Source: Clostridia bacterium (GTDB lineage: Bacteria; Bacillota; Clostridia; Oscillospirales; Acutalibacteraceae). Taken from it: a stretch of DNA of 36,416 bases. A program made the position numbers and the translations under genes. The stretch is taken from assembly GCA_044426425.1 (NCBI GenBank), contig JAWXUN010000001.1, positions 1 through 36,416 of the forward strand, in the 5' to 3' direction. Position 1 is the stretch's first letter; every line of letters starts with the position of its first letter. A model generated the notes under the pieces. It had not been told where the DNA came from. It did no database searches and saw only the letters and a program-made list of their open reading frames with translations. Positions 10,387 to 29,823 of this stretch are shown here, piece after piece.

Positions 10387-10722
10387 TCATGTTGAAAGTA
10401 ATTTTTTTAAAATATTTGCAGAGTTATCACGAATTTCCTCATAACTTTTTTTGATTTCGTCAATATCATCAATGTAAATATTACCAGTTTGATGTAGCTT
10501 TTTTACAAGTTGATTTAGACTATTGTTAGTAGCTCTAAGAGTCTTTAACATTAAATCAATTGATTTTAAATCCAGTTGAAGAAGATAACCATTTAATGCC
10601 ATTTTTCGCAAATACAATCCCATGTTTGTTATACCGCAATATTTCATATTTTCCTGTATTTGCTTATTTTCTTTCTCGTTCACTCTGAATTTTTTTTGAA
10701 TGTTTCTTTCTCTTTTTTTCAT
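10387..10722 (-). CDS. mobC: MobC-family relaxosome accessory protein
   Basis: KKFRVNEKENKQIQENMKYCGITNMGLYLRKMALNG...NNSLNQLVKKLHQTGNIY matches the MobC pattern. ATG 10722 overlaps the polyvalent-gene TGA (ATGA). Confidence 0.85.
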   Translation of the reverse strand: MKKRERNIQKKFRVNEKENKQIQENMKYCGITNMGLYLRKMALNGYLLQLDLKSIDLMLKTLRATNNSLNQLVKKLHQTGNIYIDDIDEIKKSYEEIRDNSANILKKLLST

Positions 10723-13700
10723 CGCTCAACCTCATTAGATAAACTTTTTTTAGGCTCTTGTTGTGTTTTTTGCTGTGGGTTTTCGGCTTTAGACTCTAAA
10801 CTCATTTCTGTTTCAAGTTTTTCTAATTGCTTAACTTTCTCACTTAAAATATCTTCTTTTGTAAACGGTTTACTCAATTCACTTTTAGCTGTTTCAAGCT
10901 GATTTTCAACATTTTCAAGCATATTTTTATTGTGAAATATTTTGATTTCGACTCTATCAAGTTCGTTATCAATTCTCAAAATATTACCTCTTGGGTCATC
11001 ACCTAGTGTAATATGGTGACTGATTTCGCCTTTTAGTCTAAGATTATATTCATTAGAAAAAGTGTTGTAATGTAAAAACATATCCATTCCACGATAAGTT
11101 CCTAATTGCATTTCTTGTGCGTCTAGCAATGATTTACACTTTGTAATTAATGCAAGTCCTGCAATTTCTTTATCTTTATAGACAATATTATCTATTGTCA
11201 TATTGTTAAAAAAGTTCTCTTTTATAGGATATTTTTCTTTAAGCATTAGCATATCTTTTTCCAAGCCTGCAATTGCAATTTTGTAATTGTTTATATCTTC
11301 TGGGAATTTTTTTGTGATATTATCTTCAAGACGATAATGGATATTTTTATAATCTGCTTTTTCTATTTTTAATTTAGAAATTTCAAGCGACAAGTCCATT
11401 GCAAGTTTTAAGTTTGGGTCACCTGCACAAAGAGCCTTTACCTCTGCACAGCTTAAAGCAAACTCGTCTAAATCATCACAAGAACGAACAGGCGATTTTG
11501 AGGTCATAATTTGACTTATGAATTTTTGTTTTTTCTCTAGTGTTTGCCATAAATAAGCATCAAAAGTACCATCTGTTACATATCTAAAGATATGTGCTTC
11601 CTTGTTCATATTTCCTTGTCGTTCGATACGTCCACTACGTTGTCGCAAATCCCCTGGTCGCCATGGAGCGTCAAGGTCATGCATTGCGACAAGTCTGTCT
11701 TGTACATTCATGCCTGCACCACATTTTGAGGTGCTACCAATCATAACTCTAACAGAACCAGTACGCATTTTTTCAAAAAGTTTTTGTTTTTGAACCTCTG
11801 TTTTTGCTTCATGTATAAATGCAATTTCTTCTCGTGGAACACCTCTTGAAACAAGTTTTTCACGGATATCGTCATACACACAAAATTCTTTTGAATTTGC
11901 TTTTGCTTTTGGTGTAGACATATCACAAAAAATCAACTGTGTTAATTTTTCAGCTTTGTTATCTTCCCAAATCTTGAAAACATTATTAATACAAGCATTT
12001 ACCTTGCTGTTTGGGTCATCTGGCAACATAGTGTTAAATAATCGTTGGTCTAAGCCTATCTTTCGTCCGTCTGATGTTATTTTTAGCATATTGTCAGCAC
12101 TTGGGTCAACTTTTCTATTATGAACATCGGTGGAACGCTGGCTAAGGCTTTGTATCATTTCTTTTTGAATTTCTGTCGGCTGTGTAACCACATTTGTGTA
12201 TGTCATAGTTGGAGTTGGTAAATCTAGTTGGTCTGCTGTTTTGATGTCAGCAACTTCCTTAAACATATTCATAAGTTCTGGAAGATTGAAAAATTTTGAA
12301 AAACGTGTCCTTAGTCTAAAACCTGTTCCCTCGGGTGCTAGTTCACTTTCTGTTGATGTTGTTGCAAAAGTACTTGCCCACGAGTCAAAATGCATTAAAT
12401 TTTGTCTTTTTACTGTGGCATATTGTAAATATCTTTGCATTACATACAACTCTGACATTGAGTTCATTACAGGTGTACCAGTTGCAAATACTACACCTTT
12501 ACCACCTGTAATCTCGTCTAAATAGCGACACTTTAAAAGCATATCCGCTGATTTTTGGCTTTCAGTAGTACTGAGTCCTGCAATATTACGCATTTTTGTA
12601 AATACAAAACCATTTTTATATGCGTGTGCTTCGTCTACAACTAGCATATCAACACCAAGCTGCTCGAATGTTACTACATCATCTTTTTTGTAGTTTGCTT
12701 GCATTTTTTCAAGTCTTTCTTCAAGTTTTTTTCTAGTGCGTTCTAATTGCCTTATTGTAAATCTCTCACTATTTTTGTATTTAAGTTCATTAATACCAGT
12801 TAAAACTTCTTGAATTTGTTCATTAAGCATTCTTTCTTGTCTTTCTTGAGAAATAGGAATGCGTTCAAATTGACTATGTCCTATGATAATTGCATCATAT
12901 TCACCTGTGGCAATTCTTGCACAGAATTTTTTGCGGTTTTTTGTTTCAAAATCTTTTTTTGTCGCTACTAAAATATTAGCAGACGGATATAATCGCAAAA
13001 ATTCTCCTGCCATTTGTTCTGTTAAGTGGTTAGGAACTGCAATTAAGGCTTTATTACATAAACCTAAACGCTTTTTCTCCATTACACCTGCAATCATTTC
13101 AAAACTTTTACCTGCTCCAACTTCATGAGCGAGTAATGTATTGTTGCCGTAAATAATACGAGCGATTGCATTTATTTGATGTTCTTTTAATGTTATTTCT
13201 GGATTAATTCCACCAAAAGTAATATGACTACCGTCATATTCACGAGGTCTTGTTGAATTAAATTTATCGTTGTAAAGTCTTGTGAGAAATTGCCTGCGTT
13301 CTTGATTGTTCCAAATCCATTCCCTAAACTTTTCTTTAATTGCATCTTGCTTTTGCTGTGCAACTTCTGTTTCATTTCTATTAATGACTCTTTTTTCTTT
13401 GCCGTCAATATCCGTAACTGTATCATAAATTCTTGTATCACGAAGATTTAGACAATCTTCTAAAAGTCTATACGCATTTGCTCTTTCTGTACCAAAAGTC
13501 GCTGTTGCTAAAACATTATCAGAACTTATAGCATTTTTAGATGTGATATTCCACTCACCTGTTACTGGTGAAAAGTCTACATTAATACCATAACTACTAT
13601 TATAACCTACTTGCAAATAATCTGGTGTTTGTAAAGTTTCATACATGAATTGTCGGATATATTTTTTATCAATCCAAGTTGCACCTAAGCGAACTTCAAT

Positions 13701-16700
13701 TTCACTTGCTTCGAGGTCTTTTGGTTGGACAAGTTCTAGCATATCTATGTGATTTTGAAATTCGGGATATTTGCTTACTATACATTTGACCTCTCCTAGT
13801 TTTTCTCTTACATTACCACTCAAATACTCGTCAGCTGTGAAAAATCTTGCTTTTTCGTTTTCTTCTCCACAATGTAGAGGGTCTTTGAATATTATTCCAT
13901 TTAGTTCGACTACAAGTCTATTTAAATCGTACTTATCACCGAGCAACTCTGCCATATAATTAACATCTACATAGCCTTTTTTGCCTATTGATATAGCTAA
14001 TGCTTCTGATGGTGTTTCTGCTGATGTTGGAATAACAAAGTTTTTGATAGTTCTTTTTGTAAAAATTGCTGATTTTTCTTTCAAAGTTCCATCATCATTT
14101 AGGTTTTCGAGGGAAGTTAATAAATGATAGGAATTATCTTCAGCTAAAGCCTTTGCGTTGGCTTTACTGCTTATTAATCCATGCTTTTTAGTAAAACTAT
14201 CATATATTTCATTTAATTGTTTTTGGCTTTGTTCAATCGCTTCAGAGCTGTATTCTTCAAGTTGCAAGCGTATAACTTCATTCAAACAGGACCTTACTTC
14301 AATTAAACCTTTTATTCGGTCTAAATTGTTTTTTTGTAAGGTCATTGTTGAATTTTGGCGATAATACACATTATTATCAATAACAGCATAAGAATAATTT
14401 TTAACTCGTGGGTCAGCAGGAACTACATCGTTTTTATTAGAATTTTTTTCGCTAATCTCTTCAAAACTACTCTCAAAGTCGATTTCTCCAACGATATTAT
14501 TAATAGCTTTGTCGAGTTGTTCGCTTAGGTTAGCACCCTCAAACGCTGTGCAAGTACTTTTCATGCCGTACTGGCTTGATACCATTTCCATTTTACCAAG
14601 CACCATGTGAGGATTTTCTACAAAGTAGCTGTTAATAGATATATTGTTTTCATCATATCCCAAGTGTGCCCAGTCGCATTCAATGTCAATTGGTCGCTCT
14701 CTTTTTTGTAAAAATATAATATCAGACGTAACATCTGTTCCTGCGTTAGCCTTGAATGCATTGTCTGGAAGTCTTATCGCACCCAAAAGTTCCGCCCTTT
14801 GTGCGAGATATCTCCTTACTTTTGGATTTTCCTTATCAAGTGTTCCTTTTGATGTCACGAAAGCAACTACACCTCCTGCCCTTATCTTATCTAGTGATTT
14901 TGCGAAAAAGTGGTCATGAATAAGGAAGTTATTTTTTTCATATTTTCGCTCATATAATTTGTAATTTCCAAAAGGAACATTACCAATAGCAACATCAAAA
15001 AAATTGTCGGGATATTCTGTTTTTTCAAAACCTTTGATATCAATATTTGCTTGTGGATATAGTTTTTGAGCAATTCGCCCAGTTACCGAGTCTAGTTCCA
15101 CACCGTAAAGATTAGAATTTTTCATATTCTCGGGTAACATTCCGAAAAAGTTTCCAACACCACAGCTAGGCTCGAGGATATTTCCAGTTTCAAATCCCAT
15201 ATTTCCAATTGCTTTATACATCGCATTAATAATTGTTGGTGATGTGTAATGTGCATTTTGAACAGTTGCCCTAGCATTAGAATACTCTTCATCATTTAAC
15301 AATGATTTTAGTGTGTTAAAATTGTTGTTATTTTCTTCAAAAACTTCTGCTAAACCACCCCAACCAACATATTTACTCAATATTTCTTTTTCGCTGTCCA
15401 TTGCTAGTCGGTTTTCGCTTTCAATTGTTTGCAAAGTTTCTATTGCTTCAATGTTGTTTCTAATTTTCTCGGACTTTGTTCCGATACCTAAATTATAATT
15501 TGTAATATGATAATTTTCTTCTATTAGTTCTTCTTTTTTCTCAAGTTTAAAATTTTGGTGAGAAATATTGTCAAACCAAGTAATCATAAAACTTTTCAAA
15601 TCTGCAACTACCTTTGGTGATACATCATCTACTGAATAGTATTGTCCTATTGAGTCTTGAAGAAAAGATGTAGGATAAATTCCATTGTTTTCTATTTTAA
15701 AGGTAATTTCTGGGTCACGCATCAAATCTCCGTTTTGCTCGTAGTAATGAGCAATGCTATATTCACCATAACCAATATTTTCAATAACTAAATCTTCATA
15801 GCCTTCTGATTTAAACTTTAGATAATCTGTTTTATTTTCAATGATTGGTTGCATATATGGGTATAGCTTTTTATATAAGTTTTGTTCGGTTCTATTTGCA
15901 ACTGGAGGAGCATTTAGACTATCTTTCCATGCCTTAAACTTATCATAAACCTCTGATGTCATGCTATCGCCTAAAATTTCACCACGAGGATTTATTGATG
16001 TTGTTTGAGTGGTATACACCATATCACCACTTTTACCAACTTGGTATTTGACTCCGTCTATGTTATATCCAATCACATCTCCGTCATTGTACTTAGAATA
16101 GTCAATATCTAAATCATGAAAATCTTTAAAAAATATTAATTCTGGACTTTGATTTTCTGATACTATATTTTTCTTTTCCCAAACAGCTAAAGCTTCTGTT
16201 AGTTCTTCACCTGTGTAACCTCTAAAATTTTCATTAATAGAGTAATCAGACTTGCTAATTTCTCTTGCTTCAATCTCAACTTTTAAGGCATTAAATTTAT
16301 ATGTATCATTGATTTTAATGACTTTTTCTATCCACTCTTCTTTAGGATAAAATTTTTCAGCATCATCATTGATTTTTGCAACAGCAAGTGGTGGTAAACT
16401 ATCTCCATAGATTTTAACTGTTCCTGTTTCACTAATATGTGCAACTGTTTTGTAGTCATTGCTTTCTGTATCTAAATAATTCCAAACAGTTGTACCGTTA
16501 CCTAAATTCCCATAACCTAAAGCAAATTCCTTGCCTTGCTCATTTGTAAAAACTTCTAACTCCATATCCACAAAATTACTGCTACTTTTTACAAATTCAC
16601 TAGCGATTGAACTATACATGATTGTTTTTGATGTGTTAATTGCAGGCTCGTTACTATCTTCTAATAATATTTCTGACTCGTCTAAATCATCAAAACCATT

Positions 16701-18389
16701 CCAAACATCATCAAGCACTAGTTTTGCATTTTCATCAACAATTAAACCTGCTGTTTCATCTCCATATTCTTCATGTTCTAGTAAAAAATAATCTTTACCA
16801 TTTCTAACATCTTTGTCTATAACATACCAAGTTCCAATATGTCCCTCAACTTCAATGTTGTCACTTTTTTCATCTAAAATAATATTTTTTTCTGTACCTA
16901 TCTCTTTTTTATCAGCTGTGATATAATTTGTTTTAACTTGCTCGTTTTCTTTCTCGCAAACAAGAACATTATAACCTTTTGCGTTTAAATAATTTGTATA
17001 CATATCTAGTGAGTGTGCAGGTATGCCAACCATAGTGACTTTTTCGTCACTATTAATAGATATATTTCTTTTAGTTAAAGTTAAATCTAGTTTTTCAGCC
17101 ATTATTTCGGCATCAGCGTTGTAAGCTTCAAAAAAATCACCTAAGCGATATAGTAATATATCATCTTGGTGATTTCCTTTTACATCTAAATAGCCTTGGT
17201 AAAATGGCTTGTATTCTAAAGAAATAGCGGACTCACTTGGTGCTTGTGCACTTTGTTCGTCCGCTATTGGTTCTGCTATATTTGTAAACAAGTTTGTTTG
17301 TTCGCTTGTTACTTGGTCTTGCTTTAGTTGTATATCAAGTCCTTTATCACGAAGTTCTCCGCTTCTTCGTTCAAATTCATCATGTGCCTTGCCCACTCTA
17401 TCGGATATTCCTCTTTGTTCGGTGGTGGGTTTTTCTCGAGGGACTGGCTCATTATTGTTGCTATTCTCTCTTTTGCTATCCTGTGTATCTCGTGTAGATG
17501 TGGGAACAGGGTCATGCTGAGGACTAAGTGATTGTACAATCCCGCTTTGTGCTCCTTGAGGTAATCTCTCCTCATTATTCCATATTTCCCTAGAGGTTTC
17601 ACTGGTTGTTCCTCCATTTCTAAGTCTGGAAGATACACGTTGCCTGCTTTCTTGTAATTGAAGTTGTTGTTTATCATATTGTTTGCTCCTCTCAAATAAA
17701 TATATGGTTTTTGATATATCTGTCAAAACTGGTTTAAGATTTTGGCTTATCGCTGTTCCTATCTCTGTTATGTTTTGTACAGTTTCGTTGTTAAAGATAA
17801 TCGAATGTTGTTCTTGCTTAAAAACTTTGCTGTTATCTTTGCTTAGTTTGCCGAGCAAAGAATATTCAATACTTTTTTCGAGAACAATTTTGAAATTATT
17901 TTGTTTGGTTTCGCTTATCTCACTATTATCATACTCCAAACTTATATTATTTGCAAGTTTGTGGATAGCGTTTTCTATATTTTCTTCATCAACACCATAT
18001 TTTTCACTAAACATTTTTTTTAGTGGTTCAGAATACTCTTCGTTAAAATTCCAAGTATATGGTGTTTTTGCATTTTTCTTTTCGTTAGTGTCTGAAATAT
18101 CAAAAACATATCTAATTTTACAAGTTTCATCTTGTGGGTCAATTAGAGCAATTCCAGAAGCACCAGACCTAACATAACGGTTCATTTTGTTTCCCCACAA
18201 ACGATATTCTGCACAGGCGGTGGCTTTTGGATTTTGTGCATATATCAAAACTTGCTCATGATAATCATATTTGTGAAAATTCGACATTACACTCAGTAAT
18301 TCACACCATTTAAGTGAATTTTCTGCTGTGTTTTGACTTGTTTTTGTATAAACTTCTAAATATTTGTTATATTTTTCAATATTAGCCAT
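10719..18389 (-). CDS. Polyvalent protein (2556 aa): ArdC-N-like, disordered linker, MutS-domain-I-like, LPD-type modules, N6-adenine DNA methyltransferase, SNF2-family helicase, coiled-coil tail
   Basis: Uninterrupted ORF; ATG 18389 behind AAGAAAGAGG. Motifs were located by hand (see the domain features below). Confidence 0.9.
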   Translation of the reverse strand: MANIEKYNKYLEVYTKTSQNTAENSLKWCELLSVMSNFHKYDYHEQVLIYAQNPKATACAEYRLWGNKMNRYVRSGASGIALIDPQDETCKIRYVFDISDTNEKKNAKTPYTWNFNEEYSEPLKKMFSEKYGVDEENIENAIHKLANNISLEYDNSEISETKQNNFKIVLEKSIEYSLLGKLSKDNSKVFKQEQHSIIFNNETVQNITEIGTAISQNLKPVLTDISKTIYLFERSKQYDKQQLQLQESRQRVSSRLRNGGTTSETSREIWNNEERLPQGAQSGIVQSLSPQHDPVPTSTRDTQDSKRENSNNNEPVPREKPTTEQRGISDRVGKAHDEFERRSGELRDKGLDIQLKQDQVTSEQTNLFTNIAEPIADEQSAQAPSESAISLEYKPFYQGYLDVKGNHQDDILLYRLGDFFEAYNADAEIMAEKLDLTLTKRNISINSDEKVTMVGIPAHSLDMYTNYLNAKGYNVLVCEKENEQVKTNYITADKKEIGTEKNIILDEKSDNIEVEGHIGTWYVIDKDVRNGKDYFLLEHEEYGDETAGLIVDENAKLVLDDVWNGFDDLDESEILLEDSNEPAINTSKTIMYSSIASEFVKSSSNFVDMELEVFTNEQGKEFALGYGNLGNGTTVWNYLDTESNDYKTVAHISETGTVKIYGDSLPPLAVAKINDDAEKFYPKEEWIEKVIKINDTYKFNALKVEIEAREISKSDYSINENFRGYTGEELTEALAVWEKKNIVSENQSPELIFFKDFHDLDIDYSKYNDGDVIGYNIDGVKYQVGKSGDMVYTTQTTSINPRGEILGDSMTSEVYDKFKAWKDSLNAPPVANRTEQNLYKKLYPYMQPIIENKTDYLKFKSEGYEDLVIENIGYGEYSIAHYYEQNGDLMRDPEITFKIENNGIYPTSFLQDSIGQYYSVDDVSPKVVADLKSFMITWFDNISHQNFKLEKKEELIEENYHITNYNLGIGTKSEKIRNNIEAIETLQTIESENRLAMDSEKEILSKYVGWGGLAEVFEENNNNFNTLKSLLNDEEYSNARATVQNAHYTSPTIINAMYKAIGNMGFETGNILEPSCGVGNFFGMLPENMKNSNLYGVELDSVTGRIAQKLYPQANIDIKGFEKTEYPDNFFDVAIGNVPFGNYKLYERKYEKNNFLIHDHFFAKSLDKIRAGGVVAFVTSKGTLDKENPKVRRYLAQRAELLGAIRLPDNAFKANAGTDVTSDIIFLQKRERPIDIECDWAHLGYDENNISINSYFVENPHMVLGKMEMVSSQYGMKSTCTAFEGANLSEQLDKAINNIVGEIDFESSFEEISEKNSNKNDVVPADPRVKNYSYAVIDNNVYYRQNSTMTLQKNNLDRIKGLIEVRSCLNEVIRLQLEEYSSEAIEQSQKQLNEIYDSFTKKHGLISSKANAKALAEDNSYHLLTSLENLNDDGTLKEKSAIFTKRTIKNFVIPTSAETPSEALAISIGKKGYVDVNYMAELLGDKYDLNRLVVELNGIIFKDPLHCGEENEKARFFTADEYLSGNVREKLGEVKCIVSKYPEFQNHIDMLELVQPKDLEASEIEVRLGATWIDKKYIRQFMYETLQTPDYLQVGYNSSYGINVDFSPVTGEWNITSKNAISSDNVLATATFGTERANAYRLLEDCLNLRDTRIYDTVTDIDGKEKRVINRNETEVAQQKQDAIKEKFREWIWNNQERRQFLTRLYNDKFNSTRPREYDGSHITFGGINPEITLKEHQINAIARIIYGNNTLLAHEVGAGKSFEMIAGVMEKKRLGLCNKALIAVPNHLTEQMAGEFLRLYPSANILVATKKDFETKNRKKFCARIATGEYDAIIIGHSQFERIPISQERQERMLNEQIQEVLTGINELKYKNSERFTIRQLERTRKKLEERLEKMQANYKKDDVVTFEQLGVDMLVVDEAHAYKNGFVFTKMRNIAGLSTTESQKSADMLLKCRYLDEITGGKGVVFATGTPVMNSMSELYVMQRYLQYATVKRQNLMHFDSWASTFATTSTESELAPEGTGFRLRTRFSKFFNLPELMNMFKEVADIKTADQLDLPTPTMTYTNVVTQPTEIQKEMIQSLSQRSTDVHNRKVDPSADNMLKITSDGRKIGLDQRLFNTMLPDDPNSKVNACINNVFKIWEDNKAEKLTQLIFCDMSTPKAKANSKEFCVYDDIREKLVSRGVPREEIAFIHEAKTEVQKQKLFEKMRTGSVRVMIGSTSKCGAGMNVQDRLVAMHDLDAPWRPGDLRQRSGRIERQGNMNKEAHIFRYVTDGTFDAYLWQTLEKKQKFISQIMTSKSPVRSCDDLDEFALSCAEVKALCAGDPNLKLAMDLSLEISKLKIEKADYKNIHYRLEDNITKKFPEDINNYKIAIAGLEKDMLMLKEKYPIKENFFNNMTIDNIVYKDKEIAGLALITKCKSLLDAQEMQLGTYRGMDMFLHYNTFSNEYNLRLKGEISHHITLGDDPRGNILRIDNELDRVEIKIFHNKNMLENVENQLETAKSELSKPFTKEDILSEKVKQLEKLETEMSLESKAENPQQKTQQEPKKSLSNEVER
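11520..13193 (-). other. SNF2/DEAD-like helicase domain of the polyvalent protein
   Basis: Walker A HEVGAGKSF (GAGKS at 13104-13118), DEAH box VVDEAH (12624-12635), motif VI QRSGRIERQGN. Confidence 0.85.
14685..15512 (-). other. N6-adenine DNA methyltransferase domain of the polyvalent protein
   Basis: SAM-binding motif I ILEPSCGVGNFFG and catalytic motif IV NVPFG (14967-14981). Confidence 0.85.
16950..17204 (-). other. MutS domain I-like module of the polyvalent protein
   Basis: DDILLYRLGDFFEAYNADAEIMAEKLDLTLTKR...MVGIPAHSLDMYTNYLNAKGYNV parallels the MutS N-terminal block (F[YF]R.GDFYE.F..DA...a..L.i.LT.R ... cG.P). Confidence 0.65.
17324..17677 (-). CDS. TnpV-like protein (117 aa) encoded out of frame inside the polyvalent gene (candidate overlapping gene)
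   Basis: ATG 17677 with GAGAGGAG (17686-17693) 8 nt upstream; the frame is stop-free to 17324. ...GNVYLPDLEMEEQPVKPLGKYGIMRRDYLKEHKAGLYNHLVLSMTLFPHLHEIHRIAKER...PIEWARHMMNLNEEAENFVIKDLIYN follows the TnpV family pattern as I recall it. Confidence 0.5.
   Translation of the reverse strand: MINNNFNYKKAGNVYLPDLEMEEQPVKPLGKYGIMRRDYLKEHKAGLYNHLVLSMTLFPHLHEIHRIAKERIATIMSQSLEKNPPPNKEEYPIEWARHMMNLNEEAENFVIKDLIYN
17700..18389 (-). other. ArdC-N-like (DUF1738-type) ssDNA-binding domain of the polyvalent protein
   Basis: FHKYDYHEQVLIYAQNPKATACAEYRLWGNKMNRYVRSGASGIALID fits the ArdC N-terminal pattern (yS..N..Li..Q.p.AT.v..y..W...gR.VkkGekGI.i). Confidence 0.6.
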
Positions 18390-18463: not shown

Positions 18464-19255
18464 TTATCGACAATCAAAATCATTTTCTTTATTATGATTT
18501 TTTATTCTAGCAATTTCTAATATTTTTCTTAACCTATATTGTATATGTTTTTCAATAGATAAAAGCCTTGCTTCTGGCAAATTATATCTTGAATGTCTAG
18601 TAAATTTAAAACCAATCAATTTTCTTAATTCTCTTATTTGTTTTAAACCTATTAATTCACTGCAAATTGTTTCAAATGAAAGTCTATATGGTGTTGTTCT
18701 TGTTTTTGCATACTCATTCAAATTTTCAAAATCTTTAGACATACCAAAATTAAATAAAGATAATCCATTATCAAAAATTGGTGCTGTGGATATTATTTTA
18801 CCACTTTTATTATCCCTTAAAACTCCAAAATTTCCAAAATGTCTATCTTCATTATAGATAACAGCATCGAAAATTAACATACTTTTTAAATCTTCTAAAG
18901 CTTCATTGCCTAAATTATCTTTGTAATAATCTAAATATGATTTCAAACTATCTCCTTTAAACAATCTACTTGCAGATATAAAAGATGTGTTAATGTCCGT
19001 AAAAAGTTTACACTTACAAGCTAATATACCTTTCCATTGTTCTAAATCATATTCTACTGCTTTTAGACCCATTTTTTTTGCTATTTGATATGCATAATAT
19101 TCGCTATATGGTTCGTTTCCAGTATTAATAGCACCTTCTGTACCACCTTTATATAAATATATTCCACTCGCTTTATCAAATCTCCAAGCTTTTCGGAGCA
19201 TACCATTAGTTGTTAATTCTGGTGATGTTGAAAAAGCTTGATTACTTTCTGACAC
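18464..19255 (-). CDS. HipA-like Ser/Thr kinase core, apparently 5'-truncated (possible pseudogene)
   Basis: Catalytic and Mg motifs YNEDRHFGNFGVL and APIFDNGLSLF are present. The first canonical start is GTG 19255. The frame stays open and protein-like for 40 more codons up to a TGA at 19376-19378, with no ATG, GTG or TTG in that stretch. Confidence 0.55.
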   Translation of the reverse strand: MSESNQAFSTSPELTTNGMLRKAWRFDKASGIYLYKGGTEGAINTGNEPYSEYYAYQIAKKMGLKAVEYDLEQWKGILACKCKLFTDINTSFISASRLFKGDSLKSYLDYYKDNLGNEALEDLKSMLIFDAVIYNEDRHFGNFGVLRDNKSGKIISTAPIFDNGLSLFNFGMSKDFENLNEYAKTRTTPYRLSFETICSELIGLKQIRELRKLIGFKFTRHSRYNLPEARLLSIEKHIQYRLRKILEIARIKNHNKENDFDCR

Positions 19256-19439: not shown

Positions 19440-21785
19440 TTATATTTCCATACTATTGTTATTTTTTCTAAGTCTTTCTAAAATTGATATTTTTTCTTTC
19501 TTAATAGCAACTGTTCGCTTGCCGTTGCTCATAATCATGTGCTTATTATCAACAGAATTGTGATGAACACTATAACCTAGTCTTTCCATTTCTTTTAGTG
19601 AAATATCTACAATAGAAAATGTTCCTCTAGGAGTTTTTACACTCTCACCAGTTCTTGCTGTTTTCACAATATCTGTTTGTTCTTCGTATTGCTTAAATTC
19701 AGACTCGGACAAATAACTGTTTTGCGACAACATACTACGTATTTTCTTTTCCACATAAGAAAAATTCATATTAACATCCATGCTTTTTAGAGTAAATGTT
19801 AACATAGAATTTTCATATTTCAATGTAATTCCTACATCAGAAAAATCAACAGAATTTTGTTCTAACGCTTCTGAATACACAAGTTCTAAATGTTCTTCAA
19901 TTATATCATAATTGTCCGTTTCTTGATATAATTTATATATATCAATTTTTTTCTCACTAAAATTTCCTGCTCCAGAACGAATGAAAAAGTCACAACTTTC
20001 AGAAATGTTTTCAATTTCAAACATACTTAAGGTGATTTCTGTTTCAATACTATTTTCACTTTCTAATTTTTCGGTTAATTTGATTAATTCTTCGTTATCT
20101 GAAAGAATATTGTTAGCTTCTTGTATTGATATTTCTTTGTGAGGATATCTATCCTCGTTAATTAATACATCAATATGATTTACAATTTCCTCATAAGAAA
20201 TTGTAAAAGGTTGACCGCTACGCTCAAAATATAAATCATCAGCTTTTGATTGGATAACATCTAAACAATCACCATATTCAGTATAGTAGGAACTATCTAA
20301 ATTTTTATAAAAATTCAAAACACTTTCAAGCTTTTCAGCTTTGGAACTGTCAGCTGTGAAAACATCATAAATTGCGAACTGTGATATTTGTGGTACAGGT
20401 TCAAAACTTGGAGCGATTAAAAAATTATCTATCAAATTTGAAATTTCATTTTTGTCTAAATCATAGGTCTTATCTCTTATTTTTACAAAATTTTCTAGTT
20501 TGTTAAAACCAAATCCATCAACGTAATGAAAACTTATAGTGTTATCTATATTAACACCGATAATATCACTGACAGAAAGTGAATGACCATGAAAATCTTT
20601 TGGTAAATCAAGATTAAATTTTGTATATATATTATTGAGAATTACATTTACATCATCAGTATCCATTCCTAAATCGCTACTGTAAACTACGTTATAATTA
20701 TCACGAGAAACAGACAAATTCGCTTTTGCAAGTTCATCTATACGCATAAATCTATAATCTCTATTGTCTGAGTCCTCTATTAATTGGTAAATAGCAAAGG
20801 AATGTGAAAACTCTAAAAAGTTATTTTCCACACTATTTGAATTGTTTTCTATTCCGTCCATTGTTTTTCTATAATTATAGTAATTTAACCATTCTGATTT
20901 TTTGAAACCGAAAAAAATATCAGCGTTGTGTTCACCTATATTTACAATATAGTCAGTTTTCACTTCTCTTTCAGTGTTATCTTGGAATAGCATATATGGT
21001 TTGCAAAATTGCAAATACTCACTTACTGCCGTTGGTGAAATTGTTAACGGAAGAAACGGCACTATTTGCATATTTGTATAACCATATAAACGCATTTCTT
21101 CAATGCTTGCAAACGATGGCAAATATTCAGTAGAAGTGTATGTTTCAAATGCAGATGTGTTATATAAGTTTTCAAAAATATCAATATACTCATAAAAATC
21201 TTGAACCTTTTTCAATGTGTGCAAGCTTTGGAATAAATCATCAAAGCCATTCCATACATTATTTATTATAATTTTTCTGTTTTCATCTGCAATAATATAT
21301 GGACTATCTTCGTCATGTTTGTTTTCAAGAAGAAAAAAATCTTTTTCCTCTACAATTGTAGAGTCTAAGGTAAACCAACCATTTCCCATGCCCTCAAGAC
21401 TTATCATTTCAGACTCGCTAGTGATTTTTTCGTAATTATTTCTAAAATCGGCTACTTCTAATTTTTTTGTGTGCTGAATATCTACAAGCTCTTCAATTTC
21501 TCCGTCAAAATCATCATCAGCTAAATAGCTAACTTCTTGTAAATTGTATTCTGTTATATCCCAAAAATTCGCATTTTCGGTACTGTCATGGAATAAACAA
21601 TAATTTGATTGATATTTTGCAAAAATTTCTCTTGCTTCTTGTTCGTTTTTGAAGTGATTAATACGTTCTTTTTCGGTGTAACCTATAATATCAAGTATAT
21701 GAGGTTTTATATTTTTTTCAGCTAATTCAGAACAATTAATTGTTAAAGCATTCTCGGCTATTTCATAAACTAATATTTCTTTCAT
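19440..21785 (-). CDS. Large YodL-domain protein with LPD-type modules (about 781 aa)
   Basis: YodL-like block FAIYQLIEDSDNRDYRFMRIDELAKANLSVSRDNYNVVYSS...FNLDLPKDFHGHSLSVSDIIGV...HYVDGFGF (about 20487-20807). Start set at ATG 21785 (MKEILVYEI) with AAAGGA 9 nt upstream; ATG 21818 is also possible. Confidence 0.8.
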   Translation of the reverse strand: MKEILVYEIAENALTINCSELAEKNIKPHILDIIGYTEKERINHFKNEQEAREIFAKYQSNYCLFHDSTENANFWDITEYNLQEVSYLADDDFDGEIEELVDIQHTKKLEVADFRNNYEKITSESEMISLEGMGNGWFTLDSTIVEEKDFFLLENKHDEDSPYIIADENRKIIINNVWNGFDDLFQSLHTLKKVQDFYEYIDIFENLYNTSAFETYTSTEYLPSFASIEEMRLYGYTNMQIVPFLPLTISPTAVSEYLQFCKPYMLFQDNTEREVKTDYIVNIGEHNADIFFGFKKSEWLNYYNYRKTMDGIENNSNSVENNFLEFSHSFAIYQLIEDSDNRDYRFMRIDELAKANLSVSRDNYNVVYSSDLGMDTDDVNVILNNIYTKFNLDLPKDFHGHSLSVSDIIGVNIDNTISFHYVDGFGFNKLENFVKIRDKTYDLDKNEISNLIDNFLIAPSFEPVPQISQFAIYDVFTADSSKAEKLESVLNFYKNLDSSYYTEYGDCLDVIQSKADDLYFERSGQPFTISYEEIVNHIDVLINEDRYPHKEISIQEANNILSDNEELIKLTEKLESENSIETEITLSMFEIENISESCDFFIRSGAGNFSEKKIDIYKLYQETDNYDIIEEHLELVYSEALEQNSVDFSDVGITLKYENSMLTFTLKSMDVNMNFSYVEKKIRSMLSQNSYLSESEFKQYEEQTDIVKTARTGESVKTPRGTFSIVDISLKEMERLGYSVHHNSVDNKHMIMSNGKRTVAIKKEKISILERLRKNNNSMEI

Positions 21786-21824
21786 GGGTAAAGTCCTTTC
21801 GTAATACAAAAACTGCATAGTTTT

Positions 21825-22481
21825 CTACACAGTTTTTGTTAGTATATTGTATTTTAATTTTCCTAGTTCAAATAATAATGCTAATCTAAAATCAACTATT
21901 TTAGATAACTTTTCGTTAGTTATTGAACTATATGCGTAATCATCTTTGTAGTAAATATATGGATATATCATTGTCATATCCACTTTCTCAGCTTTAATAA
22001 AGCCTTTTTTTAAAAGCGAACCTGCGGTACTTGAGTGTATCCCGTTATATACATAAGCGATATCTAAATCAGCAAAATAATAAGCTTTATGATTATTTGT
22101 AAAATTAATAAAATCATTTTTAGTAATTGTTAGAATTGATTTTACAAATTTTTCAATGCTCCAAGGTATAGTTATCACAGTAGATTTTGACAAATCAACT
22201 ACCACCTCTTCGTTTGTATAATGATTTTCCATAATTCTATTTTCGGTTATTACTGTAAAGGGTGCTAAAAAAATATCATTTAACTTTCTGCTAAAATCTT
22301 TATAAATAATATCACTTAACAAGCTATACTTTATATCACTTTTTACAATCTCAATTGCACTATTTAAGATAGTTATTTTTTCTTCGTCTGTACCTGCATA
22401 TTTTACAAGATAATTAACTTTCTTGAAAGCAAAAGTAAAATCCGTTAATGTTACTTTCTCTTTTTTGAAAAACTTAAACAT
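21825..22481 (-). CDS. Uncharacterised 218-aa protein, paralogue of 28569-29237 (cassette B, large gene)
   Basis: Shares NNH.A.Y...LD.AY..NG.HSS.AG...KKG.I.A...D.T..Y and DFRL.LLFE.GK.KY with the 222-aa protein. AAGGTGG SD overlaps the upstream stop. Confidence 0.75.
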   Translation of the reverse strand: MFKFFKKEKVTLTDFTFAFKKVNYLVKYAGTDEEKITILNSAIEIVKSDIKYSLLSDIIYKDFSRKLNDIFLAPFTVITENRIMENHYTNEEVVVDLSKSTVITIPWSIEKFVKSILTITKNDFINFTNNHKAYYFADLDIAYVYNGIHSSTAGSLLKKGFIKAEKVDMTMIYPYIYYKDDYAYSSITNEKLSKIVDFRLALLFELGKLKYNILTKTV

Positions 22482-22492
22482 ATCAAACCACC

Positions 22493-22873
22493 TTAGAAGT
22501 ATTTTTTTAGCATATTACTAATACCATACAATACTCTATCTTGCAATACGTTCTCGTAATGATTAAAATTAACGATGTCATTACATACATCAATATATTT
22601 TTGGTTTTTCATTGATATATCAAGAAGTATAAGTCTATCTAAATATGTGAAGTAATGAAAATTTTCAACAGATTTTTTTTCGTGCTTAATAGTCAATAAA
22701 CATTTGTAAAATTCTTTGATAACTTTTTTTGCCTCTTTATTTTCTTTAATGTTGACATCATAGCCATGATAAATATAATCATATTTATCATGTAGGAATG
22801 TAGTAACTACTTCAATAGAATTGTTTAATTTTTTGCGTTGTTTAAACACTTGCAATCCCTCATCGTGCATCAT
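22493..22873 (-). CDS. Uncharacterised 126-aa protein (cassette B, small gene)
   Basis: ATGATG at 22873-22868 overlaps the Toprim gene end by 14 nt. Weak similarity to the 113-aa protein at 29241-29582 (C-terminal ..LKKY[FL]). Confidence 0.6.
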   Translation of the reverse strand: MMHDEGLQVFKQRKKLNNSIEVVTTFLHDKYDYIYHGYDVNIKENKEAKKVIKEFYKCLLTIKHEKKSVENFHYFTYLDRLILLDISMKNQKYIDVCNDIVNFNHYENVLQDRVLYGISNMLKKYF

Positions 22874-23846
22874 TATATTGATAGTTTGTTTTCTTTTTAC
22901 AATTTGAAACTATTGCTTTTGGCATAGTATCTTTTGATTTTAAATTTTGCAAATCTTCGTTAAAATCTTTTGATTTTGGTGATTTTCTAATAACCTCATA
23001 ACCTTTTTCGGTGAAGTTTTCTTTAATTTTTTGACTATGTATAGTACCTCTTTCGTCTGAGTCAAGGCACACAACTATTGTTTTAATATTTTCATTTTTA
23101 GCTAAAAACTCTTCTAAAGGTGCTTGAGAAACTCCACCTAGTGACACTCTTGAGTCTTTTTTGTAATCTAAATCATACATTTGTGCTAGTGTTGCATGAG
23201 ATAAGGCATCAATTGCACTTTCAAAAACATATACCTTATCAGAATTTCCAACAATCTTAAAAGCATGATGTTTGTCCGAGCCTGTGCAATCAAGCTTAAA
23301 CTTACTTGTTTGTGATGTGCTCCGTAAAGACGCATATTTTGCTTGGTGTTTCTCGTCATATCCTACAAAGACAGCATTTCCATAATCATCTTGATAAATA
23401 TATTTTGCATCAAGCATATCTTTGACTATCTCTTTAGAAATTCCACGAGTTTGTGTTAAATATGCATAGACACGATTGTTTTTCTCACTTGCCTTTGGCA
23501 GTTGTAAGCATTGTGGTTTTAGTTGTACTTTAATTTCTTTTTTTGTAATTACTTGTTGAGGTGTTTTTTCGCCTATTAGTGTTTCTATCGCCTGTGAGAA
23601 GTCTTGATTTTCTGTTTTCATGAGAAAATCAATTGAGCCATAACCGCCGACATCTCGGCTGTGCCAGTACCATGTTTTGCAATCTCCCTTAATAGTAAGG
23701 CTCTGGTGTTGTTTACACCTGTATGATTTACCTAAAACGGCAAAGTCTAAGCTAAGATAAGATTTTAAAAAACTTAATAAATCAACATTTCTAGCTTGTA
23801 AAACTTCGTCTTTAGTAAATGATTTTGTGTTTGTGGATACTCTCAT
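22860..23846 (-). CDS. DUF3991 + Toprim domain protein (primase-like)
   Basis: N-terminus ...ARNVDLLSFLKSY...YRCKQHQSLTI....WYWHS...GGSIDFLM, and a C-terminal Toprim-like segment VYVFESAIDALS...IVVCLDSDERG. Confidence 0.8.
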   Translation of the reverse strand: MRVSTNTKSFTKDEVLQARNVDLLSFLKSYLSLDFAVLGKSYRCKQHQSLTIKGDCKTWYWHSRDVGGYGSIDFLMKTENQDFSQAIETLIGEKTPQQVITKKEIKVQLKPQCLQLPKASEKNNRVYAYLTQTRGISKEIVKDMLDAKYIYQDDYGNAVFVGYDEKHQAKYASLRSTSQTSKFKLDCTGSDKHHAFKIVGNSDKVYVFESAIDALSHATLAQMYDLDYKKDSRVSLGGVSQAPLEEFLAKNENIKTIVVCLDSDERGTIHSQKIKENFTEKGYEVIRKSPKSKDFNEDLQNLKSKDTMPKAIVSNCKKKTNYQYNDAR

Positions 23847-23973: not shown

Positions 23974-24939
23974 TTATCTCTCGTCATAACTGTAATTATG
24001 ACGTTTATTTTTATCTTTTTCTCTTTCTAAAGCAGGTTGTAATATAAGTTTATATCTCGACTCAATGCCTTTTTTCATAAATTCTTTTGCTATATCTGAT
24101 GTGACTTTAAGTTCATTATATTCATTAGGTAATTCATCTATAATAGAATAAATTTTATTAATATCTATCATCGGAACTATTTTCTTAATGGCTTTGTTTA
24201 ACTCGGGGATATCTTGAGTTTTGAAAAATTCATAAGGTATAATTAAATCACCATTTTCATCTTTAAAAACAGAAGCAATTTTCTTGCATTGCAATTCATC
24301 TAATTTATCAATTCTATTTAACATCTCTTTGTCTGAAAATTTATTATTAAAGCTATTACCATTATCAAAAACTGGTGCTAGTCTAACATCGCCATTGACA
24401 AGAAGTCCCCAGTTTCCATTGTTTCGGTCATTGTTATATAAAAGTGTATCTATTATAAACATTGTCCAAAAATGTTCTAAAACTTTATCAACTCCCACTT
24501 GTTTAACCAAGTGATTATTTTTGATATCTATTAATATTTCTTTTAAACTTACATCACCACTGTTAGAATAACTCTCCATAGCATTTACATGATATAAATT
24601 TTTGATGTTAGAAAAAACATTTAACCTTGCTTTTTGTTCTAATTTCTCAAACTCAATATCTTTACAAATGACTACCAGTTTATTATTATACACTCCTAGT
24701 TTCGTGTCATGTACTGGAACACCTATACTTCTATAAATTTGAGAACCTATAAACTCGGATAGAGGTGATGTTGTATATGATATTTTAATGTTACGTAACC
24801 CAAAGGTATTCTTAGGAAATTTTAGCATATAATATTCATTCTCAAATATAATTCCAAGTTTTAAACCTGCATTACCACCATAGCTTAAATTTGATAATTT
24901 ACAATTATCAAGATTATATATCTTAGTCATCATCTTCAC
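23974..24939 (-). CDS. HipA-like Ser/Thr kinase (short, about 320 aa)
   Basis: Gly-rich loop YGGNAGLK, then YMLKFP, catalytic LLYNNDRNNGNWGLL and Mg-binding LAPVFDNGNSF. Start is ambiguous (GTG 24939, ATG 24933 or ATG 24930); every option overlaps the upstream gene end. Confidence 0.8.
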   Translation of the reverse strand: MKMMTKIYNLDNCKLSNLSYGGNAGLKLGIIFENEYYMLKFPKNTFGLRNIKISYTTSPLSEFIGSQIYRSIGVPVHDTKLGVYNNKLVVICKDIEFEKLEQKARLNVFSNIKNLYHVNAMESYSNSGDVSLKEILIDIKNNHLVKQVGVDKVLEHFWTMFIIDTLLYNNDRNNGNWGLLVNGDVRLAPVFDNGNSFNNKFSDKEMLNRIDKLDELQCKKIASVFKDENGDLIIPYEFFKTQDIPELNKAIKKIVPMIDINKIYSIIDELPNEYNELKVTSDIAKEFMKKGIESRYKLILQPALEREKDKNKRHNYSYDER

Positions 24940-25201
24940 GATATGTCACACTCCCGTAAATTTCAAAAAAATAGTCCATTTCTCTCTCTGATATATTGCC
25001 ATTACATATTTCTATTTTTAAAAGAGGTTCTAAAGCTATAACTGCATCTAAAAAATAAATATCACCATCTTTTGTGTCTTTTAAATATAATTTTAGAATT
25101 TCATCTAATTTTTTAGGAAAGTGAACATATTTAACTTTTTTGATTATTTTATTTAATTTTTCGTTACCACACAAATCTTTAATACAACGCATTTTATTCA
25201 C
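24923..25201 (-). CDS. Hypothetical 92-aa protein translationally coupled to the HipA-like kinase (candidate antitoxin/partner)
   Basis: GTG 25201 or ATG 25192. No HTH is recognisable. TAA 24923-24925 overlaps the kinase start codons. Confidence 0.55.
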   Translation of the reverse strand: MNKMRCIKDLCGNEKLNKIIKKVKYVHFPKKLDEILKLYLKDTKDGDIYFLDAVIALEPLLKIEICNGNISEREMDYFFEIYGSVTYREDDD

Positions 25202-27942: not shown

Positions 27943-27978
27943 AAAAAAGGGCACTAGTTACAGTTAACTAGTGCCCTT
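27943..27978 (-). terminator. Strong Rho-independent terminator after the DUF4366 gene
   Basis: Perfect 14-bp stem aagggcactagtta (27947-27960) / taactagtgccctt (27965-27978) with a 4-nt loop, followed on the minus strand by TTTTGT. Confidence 0.85.
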
Positions 27979-27990
27979 TGATTATAATTG

Positions 27991-28572
27991 TTAATTTTCG
28001 TCCTCATCATGGTTTACTGGTGGTTCACCTACATAGTTTTCGTCCTCGTCATTCTCGTTAGATTTATATTTGTTTTGCTTGAAAACAAAGAAATAATAAA
28101 GGACACCTAAAACTGCAAGACCTACACCACAAAATACAATATTCATAACACTAATATCGGTGTTTGTTGTAGTTTGTGACGGTGTGCTTGGTTCTGGAGT
28201 TGGTTCGGAAGTTTCGTCTTTTTCGTCACTATTTTCCATTAAAGGCTCATTTTCCTCTGTTTCGCTTAAATCTAAAGGCACATTTTCACCGCTAGTAATA
28301 GCAACAAGGTCGGCTTCGTCAACCATATTTAAAAAATATACATTTTCTGTATCTTTTGTCTTGTCTATAACAATATAGTAATAGTTGCCGTCTTTTGTTT
28401 GTGCAATAATAAACTGTTTTTCTTCATCATCGGTAACTGTCACATCGTCAACTATTGTCATGTTTCCATCGGGAATTAGTGTATCATCATCGTCAACAGG
28501 GTCAGCAAAAACAGCTATCGGCAAGATGAAAATAAAAGCTATTACTAATAGCTTTGAAAATAATTTTTTCAT
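27991..28572 (-). CDS. DUF4366-family secreted/membrane-anchored conjugation protein
   Basis: Signal peptide MKKLFSKLLVIAFIFILPIAVFA. GNMTIVDDV...KQFIIAQTKDGNYYYIVIDK...NVYFLNMVDEADLVAI matches the DUF4366 pattern. A C-terminal TM segment is present. ATG overlaps the upstream TGA (ATGA). Confidence 0.8.
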   Translation of the reverse strand: MKKLFSKLLVIAFIFILPIAVFADPVDDDDTLIPDGNMTIVDDVTVTDDEEKQFIIAQTKDGNYYYIVIDKTKDTENVYFLNMVDEADLVAITSGENVPLDLSETEENEPLMENSDEKDETSEPTPEPSTPSQTTTNTDISVMNIVFCGVGLAVLGVLYYFFVFKQNKYKSNENDEDENYVGEPPVNHDEDEN

Positions 28573-29237
28573 TGTTGAATTTCTCCTTTTTGCAGTAAAT
28601 ACTTAATTTTTCCAATCTCGAATAATAAACCTAGTCTAAAATCTTCTAATCTATATATTTCTTTTCTACTATTGATATCAAAACATTTATCAGTATAAAA
28701 ATAAAATTTTTCGTATAAAATAGTAGTGTCTATTACATCTGCTAAAATTTTACCTTTCTTGTGTATTATTCCAGCTGATGAAGAATGCATACCATTTGAT
28801 ATATAAGCAAAATCTAAGTGAGTATAATAACAGGCTACATGATTATTTTCATCATATTTGAAAGGATTTTTTTTGATATAAATTAATTTGTCATACAACT
28901 TAACTTGCTCATAAGGGCGAACAAATACAATATCATCTTCTAAATCAATTGTTTTCTTCTCGTCTGTATAAGCACCAGTATTTATATAAATACCATTCAT
29001 AGGTTGCTTGTGGTCACGATAAAGAACTTTATTTAGTAAACTTGCTTGTATTTCTATCTTTATCATTCGCATAACTGAGTCAATGAAAATTAACTTATCA
29101 TCAAAATTATCAGTGGTATCTAAATATTTTTTTACAAATCTTATACAGTTTTCAAAATCCTCTTGTTGCAGAAGTTCTAAATCATATATTCTTAATTTTT
29201 CAATTTTATCCGTTAAAAATTTTTTCTTAAAAAACAT
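28569..29237 (-). CDS. Uncharacterised 222-aa protein, paralogue of 21825-22481 (cassette A, large gene)
   Basis: See paralogue. AAGGTG SD lies in the last codons of the upstream small gene, with a 3-nt gap. Confidence 0.75.
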   Translation of the reverse strand: MFFKKKFLTDKIEKLRIYDLELLQQEDFENCIRFVKKYLDTTDNFDDKLIFIDSVMRMIKIEIQASLLNKVLYRDHKQPMNGIYINTGAYTDEKKTIDLEDDIVFVRPYEQVKLYDKLIYIKKNPFKYDENNHVACYYTHLDFAYISNGMHSSSAGIIHKKGKILADVIDTTILYEKFYFYTDKCFDINSRKEIYRLEDFRLGLLFEIGKIKYLLQKGEIQQ

Positions 29238-29240
29238 AAA

Positions 29241-29582
29241 TCACCTTAAATATTTTTTTAGTAAAAACATCAAATTATGATACAGTCCTATATCTAAATA
29301 GAAATTTTCAATTGAAACAACTGAAATTAGTTCATATATTGCAAGAACATAATTGCTTTCTTTCAAACAATTTTCAAAATTATGTAATATTAGAATATAC
29401 CAAAATGAATGAAGTTGTAAAAAACCACTAACTATTTTTGGATTTTCAATTTTTACATTCAGTAAAATGTTATACATTTTTAACAAGTCTTGCTTTGCAT
29501 CATTATTGTGTTTTGATTGACAATTATAATAATATGCTTGTTCTCTTAGATTTTCAAGTGTTATTTTATACAAATTATGCAT
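29241..29582 (-). CDS. Uncharacterised 113-aa protein (cassette A, small gene)
   Basis: ATG 29582 with AAGGTG 6 nt upstream. Helical-looking, with no recognised family. Confidence 0.6.
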   Translation of the reverse strand: MHNLYKITLENLREQAYYYNCQSKHNNDAKQDLLKMYNILLNVKIENPKIVSGFLQLHSFWYILILHNFENCLKESNYVLAIYELISVVSIENFYLDIGLYHNLMFLLKKYLR

Positions 29583-29604
29583 TTTTTCACCTTTTATAAA
29601 AAAA

Positions 29605-29823
29605 TTAAAAGTTTTCGTTTTCAGTTTTTGGTTTGTAATTGCGGATATAATTTGTTAATTCGTCAAAATCATCAAACTTAATACTTTTGATGATTTCTAA
29701 AAGTTCAGATTGTTCTATTTCTTTTTTTTCATCAATAAGATTATTGTTTTTTTCGTGCAAAGTATCAATTTTTTCTTGATTTTTTTGTATTTCGTTTATT
29801 ATTTTTTTAATTTTTGGGTTCAT
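29605..29823 (-). CDS. DUF4315-like small coiled-coil protein
   Basis: 72 aa. MNPKIKKIINEIQKNQEKIDTLHEKNNNL...EIIKSIKFD resembles the DUF4315 proteins that follow the hydrolase gene in this ICE type. Confidence 0.6.
   Translation of the reverse strand: MNPKIKKIINEIQKNQEKIDTLHEKNNNLIDEKKEIEQSELLEIIKSIKFDDFDELTNYIRNYKPKTENENF

Follow-up and report, generated by a model that had tools for sequence, protein, structure and literature searches.

A conserved two-gene DUF6710 cassette with a predicted ParB/Srx-like domain, carried as accessory cargo in the transfer operon of a Clostridia conjugative element

The ParB/Srx superfamily offers the closest described counterparts to the locus analyzed here, and the members we compared are sulfiredoxin (Srx), the N-terminal CTPase domain of ParB, Noc and KorB, the serine kinases SerK and SbnI, Osa, GmrS/DUF262, DndB and DdrB-like ParB. 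The phosphate-binding loop of the superfamily reads FGGCHR in Srx, GERRxRA in ParB and DGQQR in GmrS, and the position of the Srx-motif cysteine is occupied by methionine in Osa (PMC4619093). Osa, from the IncW plasmid pSa, is a fertility-inhibition protein with a ParB/Srx fold and ATPase and DNase activity, which takes part in inter-element conflict at the type IV secretion system (T4SS; PMC4619093, PMC5512222). Osa, DdrB-like ParB and ParB-methylase proteins were described as effectors of conjugation or early invasion, and solo "early-phase" effectors encoded beside polyvalent proteins were proposed as a general idea (PMC5512222). Here we analyzed a stretch of 36,416 nucleotides (nt) from a Clostridia bacterium (contig JAWXUN010000001.1, positions 1 to 36,416), called the window below, which holds an integrative and conjugative element (ICE). 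Its T4SS operon contains a two-gene cassette (cassette A) that encodes a 113-residue and a 222-residue protein, and a related cassette (cassette B, 126 and 218 residues) lies elsewhere in the same element. We find that the two genes form a conserved unit that is accessory to the T4SS, and the larger protein is predicted to have a ParB/Srx-type fold.

Both larger proteins are full-length members of the Pfam family PF20457 (DUF6710), with 128.2 bits (E 4e-37) for the 222-residue protein and 125.1 bits for the 218-residue protein, at a gathering cut-off of 27 bits. The original prediction, made from the sequence alone, had called the system undescribed. This does not hold for the family of the large protein, which is already catalogued, but it stands for its function: no mention of DUF6710 or PF20457 was found in any paper searched, and neither a PDB sequence search nor the literature gave a structure or function for PF20457. 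The profile of the two window paralogues matched 673 clusters at 50% identity among 1.84 billion representatives, and genes that RefSeq annotates as "DUF6710 family protein" were found by tblastn on plasmids of Vibrio, Thermus, Niallia, Listeria, Macrococcus, Staphylococcus and Mammaliicoccus. Word-indexed protein searches returned only the query for the window protein, 12 matches for a profile of 105 aligned DUF6710 members and only itself for the family of the small protein. None of the cassette proteins matched NCBIfam or PHROGs.

Conservation was counted over the same 105 aligned members. The most conserved positions are H151 (104/105), D199 and F126 (103/105 each), followed by R201, G149 and G162 with 102 each, while S152 is kept in 93 members and H133 in 91. 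No element of the family is better conserved than the loop NG[MI]HSS. Another family motif, H..TDG..W..HT, is present in 63-95 members depending on the position (81-95 for its TDG..W part). The TDG..W motif (residues ~177-190) is missing from both window copies, and this suggests, as far as sequence goes, that they belong to a divergent sub-lineage shared with two other family representatives (P0002 and P0003).

The smaller protein has no counterpart in the domain catalogues: Pfam, NCBIfam, PADLOC, PHROGs and PDB gave no match for the 113- or the 126-residue protein. Judged from its sequence pattern, the 113-residue protein is probably helical. One weak Pfam match pointed to a HEPN domain, and this identity was rejected, as the small family does not conserve an R-x4-6-H motif and the Arg is missing from copy A. 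A hidden Markov model (HMM) of the small family recognises the 113-residue protein with E 5e-26 and, with the threshold relaxed to E 10, gave no matches elsewhere in loci totalling ~1.7 Mb.

Several lines of evidence show that the small gene and the DUF6710 gene are one real, conserved two-gene unit, as had been proposed. The first is fusion. About 14 of the 150 best representatives of DUF6710 are longer proteins of 340-416 residues with an N-terminal extension, and the small proteins of the window are homologous to such extensions (copy B to P0126 with E 4e-10 and to P0129 with E 6e-8, copy A to P0120 with E 1e-5). The second is synteny, as all contexts retrieved for the closer sub-clade have a homologous gene of 107-148 codons immediately upstream of DUF6710. 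The two genes, as called, overlap or are separated by no more than 19 nt, except in a few loci with gaps of 124-139 nt, where the DUF6710 reading frames (142-184 residues) were probably called with too late a start. In about 23 of 26 informative cassettes of this sub-clade the partner is present, split in 21 and fused in 2. The third is co-divergence of the small and the large proteins, with a Mantel r of 0.92 (p 0.0002) over 18 cassettes and of 0.76 for pairs below 60% identity. In a group of related small plasmids (L106, L131, L136 and L147) a further gene of 93-95 codons, with no Pfam match, is conserved directly upstream of the pair and could be a third component in that plasmid lineage.

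The two cassettes of the window are paralogous. The 222- and 218-residue proteins share 35% identity over 179 residues (BLASTP, E 1e-35) and the 113- and 126-residue proteins share 30% over 94 residues (E 8e-5), so the resemblance first noticed by hand is significant in proper alignment; the identities counted by hand between the large proteins, 26 of 53 and 12 of 16, were exact on recount. The description of the module as duplicated is correct as to paralogy and misleading as to a recent duplication, because the identity between the two copies (35%) falls within the range seen between them and cassettes of unrelated elements (25-42%). By sequence, cassettes A and B are two old family members side by side. 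Cassette B directly follows a primase gene and ends 6 nt before the gene of a 792-residue YodL/LPD18 protein. An unrelated conjugative element (L007, also L008) likewise carries two diverged small-plus-DUF6710 cassettes, 37% identical (L007, positions 1844-2960 and 7633-8705), and two cassettes per element may be a recurring feature. The L007 element also encodes a TrbC pilin, a Toprim primase, a type IV coupling protein (T4CP), DnaB_2 and a Rha antirepressor. The GC content is 21-26% in the window cassettes and 30-41% in the backbone genes; the window is very AT-rich in general, with about 21-41% GC across the profiled 19-33 kb region.

A structural model of the 222-residue protein was built with AlphaFold2 on the 105-sequence alignment; a run on a two-sequence alignment gave a mean per-residue confidence (pLDDT) of 45 and was not used. 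The model (pLDDT 93.5, predicted template-modelling score, pTM, 0.87) shows residues 3-73 as a long hairpin of helices and residues 90-216 as an alpha/beta core, and the NG[MI]HS loop is flanked by a strand (143-148) and a helix (150-158). Of the 40 top Foldseek matches in PDB, 39 are ParB/Srx-fold proteins (sulfiredoxin, SerK, SbnI, KorB, Noc, ParB, 1vk1 and Atu1540). In BFVD the named matches are mostly ParB/Srx proteins as well and many others are nameless, the best match having E 7e-4 and probability 1.0. The predicted order of elements is that of Srx and ParB N-domains: a strand (TIDL..V), a P-W/Y turn, a helix, a strand (NH.A.YY), a strand (..Y..NG), a helix (.HS..AG) and a strand (G.I.A.V). 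In this predicted fold the NG[MI]HSS[ST]AG loop falls on the position of the ParB/Srx phosphate-binding loop, at the junction of strand and helix. The Srx stretch FGGCHR...IPAKLV can be aligned without gaps to the DUF6710 element order and its G-x-H loop. The claim that the motif is an active-site or ligand-binding loop is supported both by its top conservation in the family and by this predicted position. G149, H151, S152, D199 and R201 are candidate residues of a probable ParB/Srx-type active site.

Several results weigh against this assignment. The PDB matches are individually weak (E 0.07-1, probability 0.4-0.8, TM-score ~0.4 on the target and 0.25 on the query). No ParB-clan Pfam model matched any of the 105 members in hmmscan, even at E up to 10, and the DUF6710 profile found no match among PDB sequences. 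When DUF6710 was aligned by hhalign to ParB N-domains from related ICE loci, the loop was placed on the ParB GxxR in the expected register, yet with P 0.14, which is not significant. Furthermore, the hallmark Arg of the ParB/Srx loop is replaced in DUF6710 (loop N-G-x-H-S) by Ser in 93 of 105 members and by His in 9, and nucleotide binding is therefore not assured, although R201 or K160 might substitute for this Arg spatially. The window copies themselves, lacking the TDG..W motif, are possibly functionally divergent or degenerate. Even so, we consider it likely that DUF6710 is a highly divergent ParB/Srx-like domain, as modelled.

Compared with the described families, DUF6710 resembles ParB/Srx proteins in the predicted order of strands and helices and in the Gly-x-His loop at the strand-to-helix junction. 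It differs in an extra N-terminal helical hairpin of 70 residues, in a C-terminal beta-hairpin region with a conserved D-x-R, in the loop Ser at the place of the hallmark Arg and in showing no significant sequence or profile similarity. We know of no described ParB/Srx family that has a small helical partner like that of DUF6710. The closest likeness in biology is to Osa, as both are small cytoplasmic proteins of ParB/Srx type (predicted for DUF6710) carried as accessory cargo of a conjugative element, and copy A of the window has Met (NGMHS) at the Srx-motif Cys position, as Osa does. Osa, in contrast, acts alone and has no partner gene; it was outside the top 50 Foldseek matches, and is likened here by description. 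Like Osa, DdrB-ParB and ParB-methylase, DUF6710 is found on mobile elements beside transfer or early-invasion genes.

The layout of cassette A was found exactly as claimed. All of its reading frames and the flanking ones were called on the minus strand; DUF4315 is followed by small gene A after 22 nt, small gene A by DUF6710 gene A after 3 nt, and the stop of the latter forms an ATGA overlap with the start of the CD1107-like gene (28572-28569), preceded by AAGGAG at 28588-28583 (other features are listed in Table 1). These junctions, with their Shine-Dalgarno sites, bear out that the pair is coupled into the mating-channel operon; the wording "translationally spliced" should be replaced by translationally coupled. 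The terminator scan found no terminator-like site inside or immediately beside the cassette, only a weak candidate with a 5-bp stem within the CD1107-like gene (28324-28308), and promoter-like sites are at chance level (15 found against 12.9 +/- 3.8 expected from shuffled sequence). The absence of a terminator at the cassette, together with promoter hexamers at chance level, fits read-through and translational coupling in the T4SS operon. A Kyte-Doolittle scan showed no transmembrane segment in any of the four cassette proteins, again as predicted, with maximum 19-residue means of 0.43-1.37 compared with 2.64 in the CD1107 control.

Table 1. Positions of cassettes A and B and of the features around cassette A in the window.
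Feature	Position	Strand	Basis
Small partner gene A, 113-residue protein, 13.7 kDa, uncatalogued family	29241..29582	-	Open reading frame list
DUF6710 gene A, 222-residue protein	28569..29237	-	Pfam PF20457, E 4e-37
NGMHSSSAG codons (N148-G156), conserved strand-to-helix loop, predicted ParB/Srx phosphate-loop equivalent	28770..28796	-	Conservation and AlphaFold2 model
Shine-Dalgarno AAGGTG of small gene A, 5 nt 5' of the ATG at 29582, inside the 22-nt gap after DUF4315	29588..29593	-	Sequence reading
Shine-Dalgarno AAGGTG of DUF6710 gene A, overlapping the TGA stop of the small gene	29242..29247	-	Sequence reading
DUF4315 backbone gene, upstream edge of the insertion site	29605..29823	-	Pfam E 2.6e-6
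CD1107-like backbone gene (formerly DUF4366, PF14283), downstream edge of the insertion site	27991..28572	-	Pfam E 1.8e-26
Strong intrinsic terminator, 15-bp stem then T run, closing the operon after the CD1107-like gene	27946..27979	-	Terminator scan
Small partner gene B, 126 residues, paralogue of the 113-residue protein	22493..22873	-	BLASTP against copy A; family HMM E 2e-28
DUF6710 gene B, 218 residues, between the DUF3991-Toprim primase and the YodL/LPD18 polyvalent-type protein	21825..22481	-	Pfam E 3.3e-36

One question raised by this location is whether the module belongs to the channel or is only carried with it, and the check on related ICE backbones that had been proposed gives a clear answer. 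We compared 80 related ICE loci, taken as matches to the VirB4 of the window at 58-72% identity, and neither DUF6710 nor the small family was found in any of them. In 61 of the 69 loci that have both a CHAP gene (CHAP/CD1108) and a CD1107 gene, the space between the two is 185-277 nt, which corresponds to DUF4315 alone, overlapping CD1107 where it was detected. Among the compared loci, only the window has an insert (1032 nt) between DUF4315 and CD1107. The other 8 loci (L016-L019, L021, L056, L063 and L073) carry different cargo. All of it lies between CHAP and DUF4315, and it encodes an acetyltransferase judged by eye to be GNAT-like, a CPCC-type protein rich in Cys, PAPS-reductase-like and radical-SAM-like proteins and a 293-residue protein with no assignment. 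The surroundings of DUF4315 look like a cargo hot-spot. No flanking repeats and no Rfam elements were found at the insertion. The absence of the module from all 80 relatives, the direct contact of DUF4315 with CD1107 in 61 of 69 and the lower GC content of the cassettes show that it is carried as accessory cargo and is no part of the channel. Further downstream the relatives have topoisomerase III (TopoIII), a YodL polyvalent protein and a giant protein, and in that stretch the window has as extras a 92-residue gene with a HipA-like gene, the primase, cassette B and a second HipA-like gene.

The family has a recurrent home in other mobile DNA. Within 4 kb of 24 other cassettes, the neighbours include ALP/ParM-like proteins, ParA, MobL relaxase, a ribbon-helix-helix (RHH) relaxase accessory protein and M23 peptidase, and further Toprim primase, ArdC-N, HU and DNA methylase. 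The ALP/ParM association comes mostly from related small plasmids and was not counted as independent evidence. Cassettes repeatedly lie inside long co-directional strings of transfer or mobilisation genes, such as RHH-MobL-small-DUF6710 (L102), RHH-small-DUF6710 (L110) and M23 peptidase-small-DUF6710-HU (L128), and in Vibrio the DUF6710 gene is found between T4CP/MobC genes and T4SS ATPase/TraL genes. DUF6710 was also found on mobilisable plasmids without a T4SS and in integrase islands. A motif scan of metagenome contigs gave 24 true members. Viral sequence yielded no DUF6710, whether in 50,697 phage records, in a motif scan of IMG/VR or in single-protein scans of viral contigs. Defence or toxin-antitoxin genes are sometimes nearby, namely ToxN, a PIN/DUF433 pair and type I restriction-modification genes. 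Some relatives have C-terminal extensions. In P0040 (L096-L098), seen on 5 contigs, DUF6710 carries a RelB-type RHH domain as a C-terminal fusion (E 2e-13), and the small gene is kept upstream. In P0134 (L099) the fusion partner of DUF6710 is a zeta-toxin-like P-loop domain, whose match (E 1.6e-4) narrowly misses the Pfam cut-off; an upstream gene of 101 codons is present there and is not recognised by the small-family HMM. These extensions were considered as a clue to function and set aside, being heterogeneous (RelB RHH, zeta-like P-loop and others with no assignment) with no consistent signal.

Based on these data we propose, tentatively and with somewhat less than even confidence, that the pair is a two-subunit, sometimes fused, ParB/Srx-type enzyme dependent on nucleoside triphosphates (NTPs), which conjugative elements carry as cargo for conflict or establishment and express with their transfer genes. 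According to this proposal, a horizontally mobile two-gene cargo would have entered the T4SS operon of a Clostridia-type ICE at the DUF4315-to-CD1107 junction, which is otherwise invariant, and cassette A would be read through and translationally coupled with the operon. The DUF6710 core would be a divergent ParB/Srx nucleotide-binding fold with its G-x-H-S loop at the predicted nucleotide-phosphate site, and H133, D199 and R201 are additional candidate catalytic residues. Both proteins would act as one unit, the small one possibly as a regulatory or specificity subunit. We infer from the predicted fold that DUF6710 may bind nucleotide and have an NTP-dependent activity of the kinds found in the superfamily, such as an NTPase-gated nuclease or a phosphotransferase. 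The recurrence in relaxase, T4SS and primase operons, the absence from the phage collections searched and the polyvalent neighbours in the window point to an action around conjugation. The pair may thus work during or just after transfer as a conflict or establishment factor, and it could guard the incoming element or act on a host system or a rival element, like Osa. A more specific version, which we hold to be doubtful, is a two-component system specific to transfer elements, in which the partner of the diverged ParB/Srx NTP-dependent enzyme would set the target or the timing, the enzyme would neutralise recipient defence or sabotage rivals and the two copies would represent two specificities.

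Some observations do not favour this proposal. The small partner was not detected beside distant DUF6710 members (plasmids of Vibrio, Thermus, Listeria, Macrococcus and Niallia), and the PADLOC-DB v2 component models gave no match to the four cassette proteins at E up to 1. In addition, the layout with a small gene upstream and a large gene downstream, the RelB-RHH and zeta-toxin-like fusions and the ToxN and PIN neighbours are equally typical of toxin-antitoxin modules. Another explanation is therefore an addiction or abortive-defence module in which DUF6710 or the small protein inhibits growth and the other neutralises it, so that the plasmid or ICE is stabilised or infected cells are killed; we regard this as unlikely, though it has much in its favour. 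Like type II toxin-antitoxin systems and HipBST/HipA, the cassette is a tightly coupled bicistronic pair on mobile DNA that occurs in split and fused forms, in several diverged copies within an element (as in the window and in L007/L008) and occasionally fused to an antitoxin-type RHH. By analogy with EzeT, CapRel and HipA as compared with HipS plus HipT, the fused forms might be cis-neutralised single chains. The module is also found on small plasmids beside partition genes, type I restriction-modification genes are among its neighbours, and the same ICE has two HipA_C-like kinase genes as extra cargo. However, unlike type II antitoxins, the window proteins contain no detectable DNA-binding domain, and no helix-turn-helix (HTH), RHH or AbrB domain was found in the 18 small-family members scanned or in the DUF6710 proteins of the window. 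The module is preferentially embedded in transfer operons and does not form its own unit, with no evident promoter of its own given the chance-level promoter sites, and PADLOC gave no support to this explanation either. The solo DUF6710 genes on several plasmids, with no detectable partner, make DUF6710 hard to reconcile with the role of a toxin.

A third option, which we find improbable, is a non-enzymatic, ParB-like factor that binds nucleic acid or protein in the DNA processing of the element, as an adaptor or regulator at the relaxosome, primase or partition system, with the small protein as its partner, comparable to KorB-KorA or ParB-type adaptors. The loss of the hallmark loop Arg would fit such a role, as would KorB, Noc and ParB among the Foldseek matches (including the KorB-KorA co-complex 8qa9), the relaxase, RHH accessory, HU, ALP/ParM-like and ParA neighbours and the place of cassette B directly after the primase. 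Against it, no HTH or other DNA-binding module follows the ParB-like core of DUF6710, in contrast to ParB, KorB and Noc; H151, D199 and R201 are near-invariant (102-104/105) and look catalytic; the 80 related ICEs function with no such module; and the flanking genes differ between elements. Finally, a role of the two proteins in the structure or assembly of the Gram-positive mating channel, as their place between DUF4315 and CD1107 and the translational coupling might imply, is effectively refuted by the related T4SS loci, the absence of a transmembrane segment or signal peptide, the second copy outside the channel operon and the presence of the family on plasmids that have no T4SS and in integrase islands.

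With the family itself already catalogued, what is new here is the ParB/Srx-like assignment, the uncatalogued partner in split and fused forms and the association with transfer operons, for which no description was found anywhere. DUF6710 is a moderately large family, with members on plasmids and ICEs of hosts as far apart as Firmicutes, Vibrio and Thermus, and it now has testable handles in the predicted active site, a partner protein outside the domain catalogues and the recurrent home in conjugative-transfer operons. If the pair is an establishment, anti-defence or fertility-inhibition factor or an addiction module, it would be a new branch of the versatile ParB/Srx superfamily and an addition to the short list of accessory conflict genes in Gram-positive ICEs. 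The insertion also indicates that cargo can be accommodated in the "core" T4SS operon of this ICE family with translational coupling preserved.

Other features of the same ICE were noted. The two HipA_C-like kinase genes encode proteins of 321 residues (23974-24939, minus strand) and 263 residues (18464-19255, minus strand), which are 30% identical (E 8e-11), have a common YN.DRH.GN.G catalytic-type motif and are absent from the related ICE backbones. The 92-residue gene (24923-25201, minus strand) precedes and overlaps the gene for the 321-residue protein, an arrangement reminiscent of the split HipS/HipT. The DUF3991-Toprim primase is a stand-alone gene of 328 residues downstream of TopoIII (22860-23846, minus strand), and its homologue in L034, L047, L069, L072 and L092 lies upstream of VirB4, within a protein of ~620-640 residues; from sequence comparison, the accessory region is rearranged relative to its relatives. 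A giant protein of 2556 residues (10719-18389, minus strand) contains MutS-I, LPD18, DUF6908 and SNF2 helicase domains, and together with the 792-residue YodL/LPD18 protein (19440-21818, minus strand) it belongs to the polyvalent-type "early invasion" proteins of conjugative elements. The closest VirB4 relative (L014, 72% identity) was found on a contig attributed to a metagenome-assembled genome of the spirochaete Brevinema sp., whereas nearly all others are from Clostridia.

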